Part shown: positions 39,103-40,319 of the stretch, one piece after another
How the letters are laid out: every line of letters starts with the position of its first letter
Position numbering within the stretch: position 1 is the first letter of the stretch
From: Candidatus Omnitrophota bacterium
Lineage (GTDB): Bacteria > Omnitrophota > Gorgyraeia > Pluralincolimonadales > Pluralincolimonadaceae
Direction of reading: 5' to 3'
DNA length: 64,000 bases
NCBI GenBank assembly: GCA_041653595.1
Contig: JBAZFB010000002.1
Location: forward strand, 68,579 to 132,578
The notes under the pieces: model-generated
The model's input: the letters and a program-made list of their open reading frames with translations, nothing else
What the model was told of the DNA's origin: nothing
Databases searched by the model: none
Translations under genes and position numbers: made by a program

Positions 39103-39133
39103 AGGGACAGTCCCCATGCGGGGACAGTCCCTG
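39103..39133. repeat. 31-bp palindromic element AAGGGACAGTCCCCATGCGGGGACAGTCCCT (copy 1, upstream of dinB)
   Basis: Identical copy at 39490-39520. Each half GGGACAGTCCC is itself palindromic. Confidence 0.9.
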
Positions 39134-39155
39134 CGCATACCGACAGGATAATAGA

Positions 39156-40319
39156 ATGATCCTGCACATAGACATGGACGCTTTCTTCGCGTCCGTTGAA
39201 CAAGCCATCAACCCGCGGCTTAAAGGCAAACCCCTGATAGTAGGCACGCGCGAAAGGAAGCTCCACACGGTCGTTTGCGCGGCCAATTATGAAGCCAAGG
39301 CCTTAGGTATCGGCTCAGGGATGTCTTCTGATGAGGCCTTTAAGATATGCCCGGACCTTAATTTTGTCCCGGCAGAACAAAGCAAATATATCTGGACCTC
39401 AGGCCGGATATTGGAGCTTATCAAAGGATACGGGTTTGAGACCGTATATGTTTCGATAGATGAGTTCCAGGTGGATGTGGGAAGCGAACAAGGGACAGTC
39501 CCCATGCGGGGACAGTCCCTAGCTGAAGATATACGGCGCAGGATAAACAAAGACTTCAATATAACGGCCTCCGTAGGCATAGCGAAAAATTGCCTTCTTG
39601 CCAAACTTGCCTCAAAGATAAATAAGCCCAACGGCATAGCCGTCCTGAATGAATCAAATTTAGCTGAAATCTTGGCCAAAACACCGGTCGAAAAATTATG
39701 CGGGGTGGGGGAGAAGACAGCCGAAATTTTTTGGGGTTTAGGGGTAAAAACCTGCCTGGACCTGTACGCCAAAACGCCCAAATTTCTGGAGCGGAATTTA
39801 GGCAAGAACGGGCTCAATCTTTACGTGTCATTGCATGCCGAAGAGACGCTTGAGCCGGCCGATGATGACCCGGACCCCAAATCCATTGGCCATTCGTACA
39901 CCTTGCCGAGATCCACAGAAAATCCTGGGTTTGTCCGCGCCTGGATACGCCTTTTGGCCGATATGGTCGCTGAGCGCCTAAGGCAGCAAGGCCTGGCAGC
40001 GGCAACAACACACCTATGGCTGAACGGGCCGAAAGTAGGCAATTTCGGGGCCCAAAAGACATTCCCTGAAGCCACCAATGACGGCCAGGAGATATTCCGG
40101 AGAGTACTTGTTAATATGTCCAAATTAGGGCCAAACACGCCCAAAACAAGGGCTTTAGGCGTAACCTGCAGTAGTTTCACACATACCAGTTATTTGCCTT
40201 TATTTGACCAACAGAAGCGCCGGGAAGCGCTCCTGAAGGCGGTAGACAGGATCAATGACCGCTACGGAGACGGCTCGATTTATCCCGCCGTTATTACCTT
40301 GACCAGGAAGATGCAATAA
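39156..40319 (+). CDS. dinB: DNA polymerase IV (Y-family)
   Basis: 'MILHIDMDAFFASVEQ', 'SIDEFQVDV', 'LTASVGIAKNCLLAKLAS'. Adjacent to lexA. Confidence 0.9.
   Translation: MILHIDMDAFFASVEQAINPRLKGKPLIVGTRERKLHTVVCAANYEAKALGIGSGMSSDEAFKICPDLNFVPAEQSKYIWTSGRILELIKGYGFETVYVSIDEFQVDVGSEQGTVPMRGQSLAEDIRRRINKDFNITASVGIAKNCLLAKLASKINKPNGIAVLNESNLAEILAKTPVEKLCGVGEKTAEIFWGLGVKTCLDLYAKTPKFLERNLGKNGLNLYVSLHAEETLEPADDDPDPKSIGHSYTLPRSTENPGFVRAWIRLLADMVAERLRQQGLAAATTHLWLNGPKVGNFGAQKTFPEATNDGQEIFRRVLVNMSKLGPNTPKTRALGVTCSSFTHTSYLPLFDQQKRREALLKAVDRINDRYGDGSIYPAVITLTRKMQ
39490..39520. repeat. 31-bp palindromic element copy 2, in-frame inside dinB (encodes QGTVPMRGQSL)
   Basis: Exact identity to 39103-39133. 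Confidence 0.9.

Follow-up and report, generated by a model that had tools for sequence, protein, structure and literature searches.

A small REP-type hairpin, probably inserted at the orf103-dinB junction and in frame in a DinB loop of an Omnitrophota bacterium

The DNA analyzed here (the window) is a 64,000-nucleotide stretch of a Candidatus Omnitrophota genome (assembly GCA_041653595.1, contig JBAZFB010000002.1, positions 68,579 to 132,578), and the subject of this study is a 31-bp palindromic element that occurs twice within its lexA-orf103-dinB operon. All three genes are on the plus strand. The first, lexA (38211..38786; Pfam LexA_DNA_bind and Peptidase_S24), probably starts at ATG 38211; the mechanically listed open reading frame (ORF) starts at TTG 38175. 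It is followed by orf103 (38790..39101), a conserved ORF of 103 aa, and by dinB (39156..40319), which codes for the Y-family DNA polymerase IV (387 aa; Pfam IMS 2e-41 and IMS_C 9e-17; PDB Pol IV 7yll_A 4.6e-45). The nearest database protein, from a Candidatus Omnitrophota metagenome-assembled genome (MAG), is 100% identical to the window DinB. Among the 120 closest homologs the modal length is 382 aa (56 proteins).

The upstream copy of the 31-mer AAGGGACAGTCCCCATGCGGGGACAGTCCCT lies in the orf103-dinB spacer (39102..39132, plus strand), beginning right after the orf103 TAG stop and ending 23 nt ahead of the dinB ATG (39156). The intragenic copy (39490..39520, plus strand) is in frame in dinB and encodes Q112-L122 (QGTVPMRGQSL) between SIDEFQVDVG and AEDIRRRI, just as an earlier note on this DNA had read it. 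The two exact copies are identical including the flanking A and T; their flanks read ATAGA and GAACA on the 5' side and GCGC and AGCT on the 3' side. Each is made of two direct units of the 11-mer GGGACAGTCCC, i.e. GGGAC-A-GTCCC (39104..39114, 39121-39131, 39492-39502 and 39509-39519, all on the plus strand). The earlier note was right about the two identical copies and about the nested palindrome, although its first coordinate (39103-39133) was one base off. Its description of the copies as direct repeats also stands, except that the distance is 388 bp from start to start and not 387 bp. There are exactly two copies of the 31-mer in the 64 kb, with no mismatches between them and no third copy at up to three mismatches, and all four sites of the 11-mer fall within them (0.66 expected). 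A chance origin of the repeat was rejected, as the 31-mer had no match in 100 dinucleotide-preserving shuffles (chance expectation 0).

Both copies fold as a stem-loop of -22.6 kcal/mol (z = -6.1), whose 13-bp stem has an A·A mismatch at its center and whose 4-nt loop reads AUGC. With its two direct GGGACAGTCCC units, the 31-mer is a short imperfect palindrome in the range (~20-40 nt) of repetitive extragenic palindromic (REP) sequences. We further compared 294 distinct copies of the family. The bases flanking the fixed core are complementary in 68% of them vs 44% in shuffles (G..C 142, A..T 52, G..T 47), the first and last bases of the spacer between the two 11-mers pair (inner C..G) in 88%, and the length of this spacer varies from 2 to 10 nt. 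The variable spacer and the complementarity of the flanking pairs argue for a hairpin rather than for a phased double-stranded binding site. In the RNA fold of the window, CAGGAU also pairs with AUCCUG around the dinB AUG. An intrinsic terminator scan reported neither copy; both hairpins lack a U-tract (their tails are GCGCAUACC and AGCUGAAG), and a terminator role was rejected on this ground. Some family members elsewhere are flanked by A/T runs (e.g. L080, L084 and L109). Rfam 15 covariance models gave no relevant match at E values up to 10 in region 37900-40600.

Filled and empty sites in related operons indicate where the element was added. Both copies are present in the window and in two independently assembled loci, L001 and L002, and both are absent from L003, L124 and the contig coding for the DinB protein P0002, element-free operons with ~88-91% protein identity to that of the window. 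In these three, orf103 and dinB overlap by ATGA with zero spacer, whereas in the window the two genes are 54 nt apart. The ancestral-type junction of the orf103 3' end and the dinB start is nevertheless retained as GACAGGATAATAGAATGA (39142..39159, plus strand), which differs at 1 of 18 positions from GACAAGATAATAGAATGA of L003 and now supplies an AGGA Shine-Dalgarno-like motif together with the dinB ATG. A second, synonymously diverged copy of the orf103 3' end lies upstream of the upstream element. As junction sequence is kept on both sides, the junction was duplicated, with both stop and start retained. L002 carries a third copy of the element between lexA and orf103, and L124 has a solo 11-mer exactly where L002 has this full element; this shows that loss or gain from unit to unit does occur.

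The intragenic copy is found in the same three loci as the upstream one. Where the window, L001 and L002 have 33 nt, the DNA alignment shows 18 unrelated nt in L003 and L124, a net change of +15 nt, so that a pure insertion of 31 nt or of 11 codons was rejected. At the protein level, this corresponds to eleven residues in P0001, P0004 and P0005 vs six (RDxxxL) in P0002, P0003, P0006 and P0007. The 11-residue segment, suspected earlier of being an insertion, is thus one relative to close orthologs, but the net gain amounts to five residues and native sequence was replaced. Judged from these alignments, the copy occupies a variable loop that is free of the element in close orthologous genes and keeps the reading frame, as an intragenic in-frame insertion would. 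The similarity of RDGQLL in P0003 to RGQSL of the element was considered as a trace of a proto-site and treated as chance, since the other element-free orthologs lack it. In an AlphaFold2 model of the window DinB (mean pLDDT 69.6; catalytic core mostly 70-93), residues 108-118 form a coil after strand 103-107, behind the catalytic D102/E103 and ahead of helix 119-134, with pLDDT below 50 at residues 113-116.

A search for further copies, as the earlier note advised, had different outcomes at two scales: the window holds no further copy, but the hairpin core is dispersed in many other genomes. We searched species-representative genomes for the pattern GGGACAGTCCC-N2-10-GGGACAGTCCC and metagenomes for the exact 28-mer with an ATGC or ATTC (ATKC) loop. 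The doublet was found at no fewer than 120 loci (at least 120) of species-representative genomes from many phyla. The matches listed include Actinomycetota (Gaiellaceae and others), Planctomycetota, Omnitrophota, Myxococcota, Armatimonadota, Nitrospirae, WOR-3 and Patescibacteria, as well as Beta-, Alpha- and Gammaproteobacteria and Aminicenantes/Acidobacteriota; a few carriers are isolates, e.g. Pseudoduganella. Several loci per genome occur in Gaiellaceae, Planctomycetota, Omnitrophota, Oxalobacteraceae and Myxococcaceae (multi-locus MAGs include Omnitrophota E14_maxbin.165, Gaiellaceae CTOTU39264, Planctomycetota NIOZ-UU85 and Oxalobacteraceae UBA6704). The exact 28-mer was present in at least 120 metagenome contigs with GC content of 0.34-0.73 and lineage-specific flanks. 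By our own estimate, chance would account for ~6 or fewer matches to the 22-base pattern and for ~1e-4 matches to the 28-mer. In a viral collection, the real pattern was present in 7 contigs and two composition-matched palindromic doublet controls in 0 and 13, so that this collection is uninformative on enrichment. No full-length copy was found in PLSDB plasmids or INPHARED phages.

The family often enters other genes in frame as well. In low-GC Omnitrophota-like contigs, miaB (UPF0004 and Radical_SAM domains) contains the element at three sites with presence/absence polymorphism, and the copies are read in different frames (GTVP..GQSP, GQSP..GDSP and DSP..GTVP). The miaB genes with the hairpin are those of L025 (4037-5377), L034 (4393-5547, minus strand), L129 (8002-9231, minus strand), L169 (603-1931) and L236 (9522-10679), with up to three copies within one gene (L025). 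Further in-frame copies are found in genes for a GT4 glycosyltransferase, a valyl-tRNA synthetase (ValRS) and a CobQ-like protein. DinB itself has been entered elsewhere as well: in orthologs P0066, P0072 and P0078 the element is located in a second loop, just before PKSIGHSYT, in another frame, and the second-loop copy of L270 is the perfectly paired form GGGACAGTCCCCGAAGGGGACTGTCCC. The ValRS gene of L090, on a contig labeled Candidatus Saccharibacteria (2559-5225, minus strand), carries the hairpin as GLSPSGTVP (antisense reading) and, in addition, the repeat-derived peptides SRESGNL and DPRVKPEDD, which suggests that several palindromic families have settled within one essential gene. In Actinomycetota, the hairpin was observed directly 3' of the stop codon of Y-family polymerase genes (L122 3008-3035, dinB; L116 963-993 and L072 7108-7160, both imuB-like). 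Overall, a Y-family polymerase gene is present in 4 of ~240 element loci vs roughly one expected, a difference that is suggestive only.

Clustering of ORFs of at least 120 codons from 240 element-bearing loci gave a family, represented in five loci, that was assigned by Pfam to Y1_Tnp (PF01797), the IS200-like family that includes REP-associated tyrosine transposases (RAYTs). Three such genes are flanked on both sides by GGGACWGTCCC units: L062 (3014-3936) and L098 (413-1204), both from Planctomycetota and with Pfam E values of 1e-9 to 1e-15, and L245 (~60-860), assigned by tblastn and reading of the ORF only. Each side of the gene has its nearest unit within ~140 nt, and the most distant of the flanking units lie at up to ~225 nt; the two sides of L098 have units of opposite orientation, as in REPtrons. 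The three RAYT-like proteins are only 25-31% identical to each other. From this association in other genomes we infer that a RAYT-type enzyme may have mobilized the dinB copies, a proposal that we regard as evenly balanced. RAYT-like genes of three Omnitrophota MAGs (L267-L269), syntenic and located downstream of a comM-like gene, were considered as cognate candidates and set aside, as they carry another flanking REP.

Taken as a whole, we find it likely that a REP-type hairpin inserted at the junction and in the DinB loop, and the in-frame insertion of a REP-like mobile hairpin, as read from the alignments, has a still higher probability. The 31-mer would be a small hairpin of two direct near-palindromic units, (A/G)GGGAC-A-GTCCC(C), which as single-stranded DNA or RNA would form a 13-bp stem around an invariable A·A mismatch at its center, closed by a short loop that varies. 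Copies presumably entered an ancestral Omnitrophota lexA-orf103-dinB operon at two places. At the overlapping stop/start of orf103 and dinB, partial duplication would have kept both genes intact, now 54 nt apart. The other site appears to be a permissive surface loop of the DinB palm domain; as all six reading frames of the element are stop-free (direct reading) and the net change is +15 nt, the insertion could be tolerated as a loop longer by five residues. The element is most likely a selfish or near-neutral passenger, which may spread on single-stranded DNA through a RAYT-like HUH/Y1 transposase acting in trans, to judge from the other genomes; we consider any selected function at the dinB locus improbable. 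The suggestion that a REP- or MITE-like element (MITE stands for miniature inverted-repeat transposable element) had colonized a coding sequence without breaking the frame is upheld in its substance, except that REP-like fits better than MITE: the element has 31 bp and lacks both the terminal inverted repeats of an insertion sequence (IS) and a clean target-site duplication.

Side effects of these insertions might include the possible loss of translational coupling of dinB to orf103, and the SOS transcript would contain two stable hairpins, with a potential influence on the translation of dinB or on mRNA decay. The 31-bp direct repeats could also delete the dinB 5' end, as the earlier note supposed; this is correct in principle, since recombination between them would remove 39133-39520 and leave GAATAG-(31-mer)-AGCTGAAGAT. 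The same note had the repeats flank both the catalytic N-terminus and the dinB promoter-proximal region. They do enclose the dinB start and residues 1-111, whereas the promoter most likely lies upstream of lexA (38175-38203).

Several observations weigh against insertion of a mobile REP. The 64 kb contain just two copies, which share one operon, and multi-copy dispersal is seen only in other genomes. The window contains no Y1 transposase gene, and the RAYT-like genes of the three Omnitrophota MAGs are flanked by a different, ATAGGGACGTCACCTAT-like REP. The GTAG/CGTC foot that marks canonical REPs is missing from the window copies. When filled and empty sites are compared, all three pairs depart from clean cut-and-paste: at the junctions the copies come with 9-23 nt of additional or duplicated sequence, and within dinB 18 nt have been replaced. 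No clean target-site duplication was detected at the lexA-orf103 or the intragenic site, and the orf103-dinB site shows only a selected-looking duplication of stop and start. Relative to GC skew, the family has no strand bias (45 vs 43 loci); a replication-strand bias occurs for some Y1 transposons. Finally, a DNA tree of dinB from the five close loci has a star-like shape, with bootstraps of 20-72% and the element-free L124 as the nearest relative of the window, and pairwise identities switch partner segment by segment along the locus, as in a recombination mosaic. Read from the sequences, such a tree fits a single gain, repeated gain at a hot spot, loss and transfer by recombination alike.

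How the second copy arose is a separate matter, and transposase-free local copying, whether through ectopic gene conversion, template switching or slippage (likewise for the third copy of L002), is compatible with insertion of a mobile REP because it concerns only the origin of that copy. The copies are tightly clustered (2 in 388 bp with none elsewhere in 64 kb, 3 in ~800 bp of L002 and 3 in one miaB gene of L025), the window pair matches down to the flanking A and T, the intragenic event is an exchange of native sequence and not a clean insertion, and a solo 11-mer (L124) and a doublet (L002) share one site. However, the junction and loop sites have no common flanking homology that could guide conversion, and a dispersal mechanism must exist, since the family has reached many unlinked genes and genomes. 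We therefore view local copying as a minority possibility, albeit the strongest of the alternatives. Less probable, and in our opinion unlikely, is that the stem-loops have been domesticated as cis-regulatory RNA hairpins that tune DinB output against that of LexA and orf103, for example as barriers to 3'-5' decay, RNase III sites or translational brakes after the loss of coupling. REPs have been reported to stabilize upstream mRNA (PMC3733652). All seven operon copies in the three genomes are on the sense strand, the upstream copy abuts the orf103 stop only 23 nt before a dinB ATG that is itself in a small predicted hairpin, and in the intragenic copy of L002 the loop-closing C-G pair is changed to T-A, a compensatory replacement. 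On the other hand, this replacement is a single case, there is no U-tract or Rfam match, sister operons function with neither copy, the same junction and loops contain different palindromes in other lineages, and the family occurs in all sorts of unrelated contexts.

The earlier note offered an intragenically duplicated operator as its own alternative; in this case, the 11-mers would be sites for LexA or another repressor, with the duplicate allowing a repression loop across the start of dinB. Each copy has two palindromic half-sites, the copies lie on either side of the dinB start and the operon is of SOS type, all of which would suit such a role. Yet the sites are missing from orthologous operons that have the same lexA (L003, L124 and L265 are without the 31-mer), the 2 to 10 nt spacing of the 11-mers suits a loop and not a phased dimer-of-dimers site, and the element is also found inside miaB, valS and other genes of many phyla. 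Moreover, a different palindrome, CCACACAAATGTGTGG, is invariant in the lexA promoter of four loci, and sister operons keep this promoter palindrome without the element. We consider an operator very improbable. When the 31-mer was tried as a LexA (SOS) operator, the expected features were found at the promoter palindrome (38182-38197) instead. Coincidence or an assembly artefact at a repeated k-mer has a practically negligible probability. De Bruijn graphs with k <=31 can be misled by an exact repeat of a 31-mer, but three independent assemblies from different samples share the two-copy arrangement, and the copies of L001 and L002 are not identical, which excludes an artefact, and zero chance matches are expected.

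Insertion of a mobile REP at these sites can be viewed next to other palindromic repeats in or near dinB. The ATTCCCGC and GCGGGAAT family (arranged as ATTCCCGC-loop-GCGGGAAT, peptide SRFRGND) is in frame in a DinB loop of L266 (~388-420), L002 (2582-2627) and L001 (2044-2066), and a further one (CCCTCTCCCC-AGA-GGGTAGAGGG, peptide LTLSPEGRG) in L265 (3332-3362); both use the same two DinB loops as the GGGAC element. In P0010 and P0011, other palindromes sit in the very loop that holds the element in the window, and the operon gene junctions of L265, L270 and L271 hold yet other REP-like sequences. The lexA-orf103 spacer of L265 (2413-2693) extends over 280 bp vs 3 bp in the window and includes several unrelated REP-like palindromes, among them a GTAG...CTAC-tagged doublet. 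The window has a second, intergenic repeat family, ATAGGGGACGTGTCA(AAAGGGGA), at 26092-26129, 27191-27225 (minus strand), 31804-31826, 33287-33309 and 40318-40340, the last copy being directly after the dinB stop. This family resembles the ATAGGGACGTCACCTAT repeats that flank the RAYT-like genes of L267-L269 and, on sequence grounds, may be the resident REP of the source genome.

As to the operon itself, a strong sigma-70-like promoter (TTGACA, 17 nt, TATATT; 38175..38203, plus strand) matches the consensus at 11 of 12 positions, and the perfect palindrome CCACACAAATGTGTGG (38182-38197, plus strand) lies in its spacer, between TTGACA and TATATT, as a candidate LexA operator. Since the window, L001, L002 and L265, four diverged loci with unalignable DNA upstream of it, share this block unchanged, CCACACAAATGTGTGG is likely the LexA site of the operon and a candidate Omnitrophota LexA box. 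Only 8 nt separate the -10 hexamer from the lexA ATG at 38211, a distance that points to a lexA mRNA with no leader or almost none. The orf103 product has no Pfam family, with only a sub-threshold match to DUF6504 (E = 0.08). Its gene is constantly found between lexA and dinB in these Omnitrophota, translationally coupled to dinB through the ATGA overlap in the element-free relatives, and its product may be a DinB accessory protein. A low-GC island (34000-38000; 0.34 vs ~0.50 elsewhere) with a SecB-like ORF (37599-37994) is situated directly upstream of lexA and is possibly acquired DNA. At ~40000-42000, just past dinB, cumulative GC skew peaks, AT skew changes sign and gene orientation appears to turn from plus to minus, so that this region could be either a convergence point or possibly a replication terminus region.

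Of the known classes of small mobile palindromes, MITEs resemble the element in being small and non-autonomous, in using a transposase in trans and in their ability to land in genes. However, they are typically 50-500 bp long, with terminal inverted repeats of a parent DDE-type IS and target-site duplications, none of which is seen at the 31-bp element, and assignment to this class was rejected. Yeast mitochondrial GC clusters and cyanobacterial small dispersed repeats are very short GC-rich mobile palindromes that occur in coding regions and within other repeats. They have no recognizable transposon structure, their hosts and sequences differ from those of the GGGAC element, and to our knowledge no link to a Y1 transposase has been described for them. 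Rickettsia palindromic elements (RPEs) are also in-frame palindromic repeats that add a peptide at permissive positions and leave the host gene intact. RPE-1-type elements are ~100-150 bp long and known only from Rickettsia, unlike the window element with its 31 bp, net gain of five residues and cross-phylum distribution. The latter also lacks the CGTC tag of RPE-4 and RPE-6, shorter RPEs that have been equated with CGTC-tagged REPs (PMC3733652).

The closest counterpart is the REP/REPIN-RAYT system. Common features are a 20-40-nt imperfect palindrome, multiple copies in many genomes, a mostly intergenic and sometimes in-frame location, Y1_Tnp genes flanked by the repeat in a REPtron-like manner (L062, L098 and L245), and the retained stem mismatch; cleavage by the E. 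coli RAYT requires imperfect pairing in the REP stem (PMC3733652). Three features differ. The window copies have no foot of the type GTAG/GT[AG]G or CGTC; elsewhere, aGTAGGGAC...GTCCCTAC is read in some copies but not in most. The element is a direct doublet of an 11-13-nt palindrome, hence the obligatory A·A (or T·T) mismatch in the stem. Lastly, one core is found in many phyla beside RAYT-like proteins with 25-31% identity. This conflicts with the published rule that every RAYT has a REP family to itself; according to Quentin et al. (2018, PMC6006769), a separate REP family, with a GT[AG]G foot, belongs to each tnpA-REP gene. The GGGAC/GTCCC family is absent from the supplements of the 2013 REP survey (PMC3733652), and a literature search for the 11-mer and 13-mer returned only unrelated eukaryotic primers, with no bacterial context.

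The dinB element behaves as an intragenic REP, and such events have been known since 2013, when REPs lying wholly inside ORFs were described (Di Nocera et al. 2013, PMC3733652). At the level of the locus the meaning is modest: a clear natural case of a tiny mobile hairpin absorbed as a surface loop of an enzyme, where the same element would also break the translational coupling of an SOS-regulated polymerase gene and, as 31-bp direct repeats, brackets the catalytic N-terminus of DinB. What sets the element apart is a hairpin core identical across phyla and beside divergent RAYT-like genes, for which we found no description in the literature. The doublet is spread over at least 6 bacterial phyla (more than 15 by database record labels) with GC content from 34% to 73%. 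We raise, with more doubt than confidence, the idea that the GGGGAC-A-GTCCCC doublet represents an undescribed, near-universal REP lineage, conserved base for base including the obligatory A·A mismatch. If true, this would imply a cross-phylum hairpin replicator, a long-frozen recognition code or a universal host factor that selects the exact structure. Intragenic REPs are enriched in genes for repair, error-prone polymerases, tRNA synthetases and tRNA modification (Di Nocera et al. 2013, PMC3733652; Quentin et al. 2018, PMC6006769), and their concentration in replication and repair genes has been noted without explanation (PMC3733652). The GGGAC doublet repeatedly enters the same gene classes in frame (Y-family polymerases, miaB and valS), and a single phylum shows it in two separate loops of DinB and at three sites of miaB. 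If the lineage is real, it would also make an amenable system in which to study why repair and tRNA-related genes accumulate intragenic REPs. Upheld in a full census, it would provide a defined sequence with which to follow how REPs move, cross lineages and repeatedly target particular genes.

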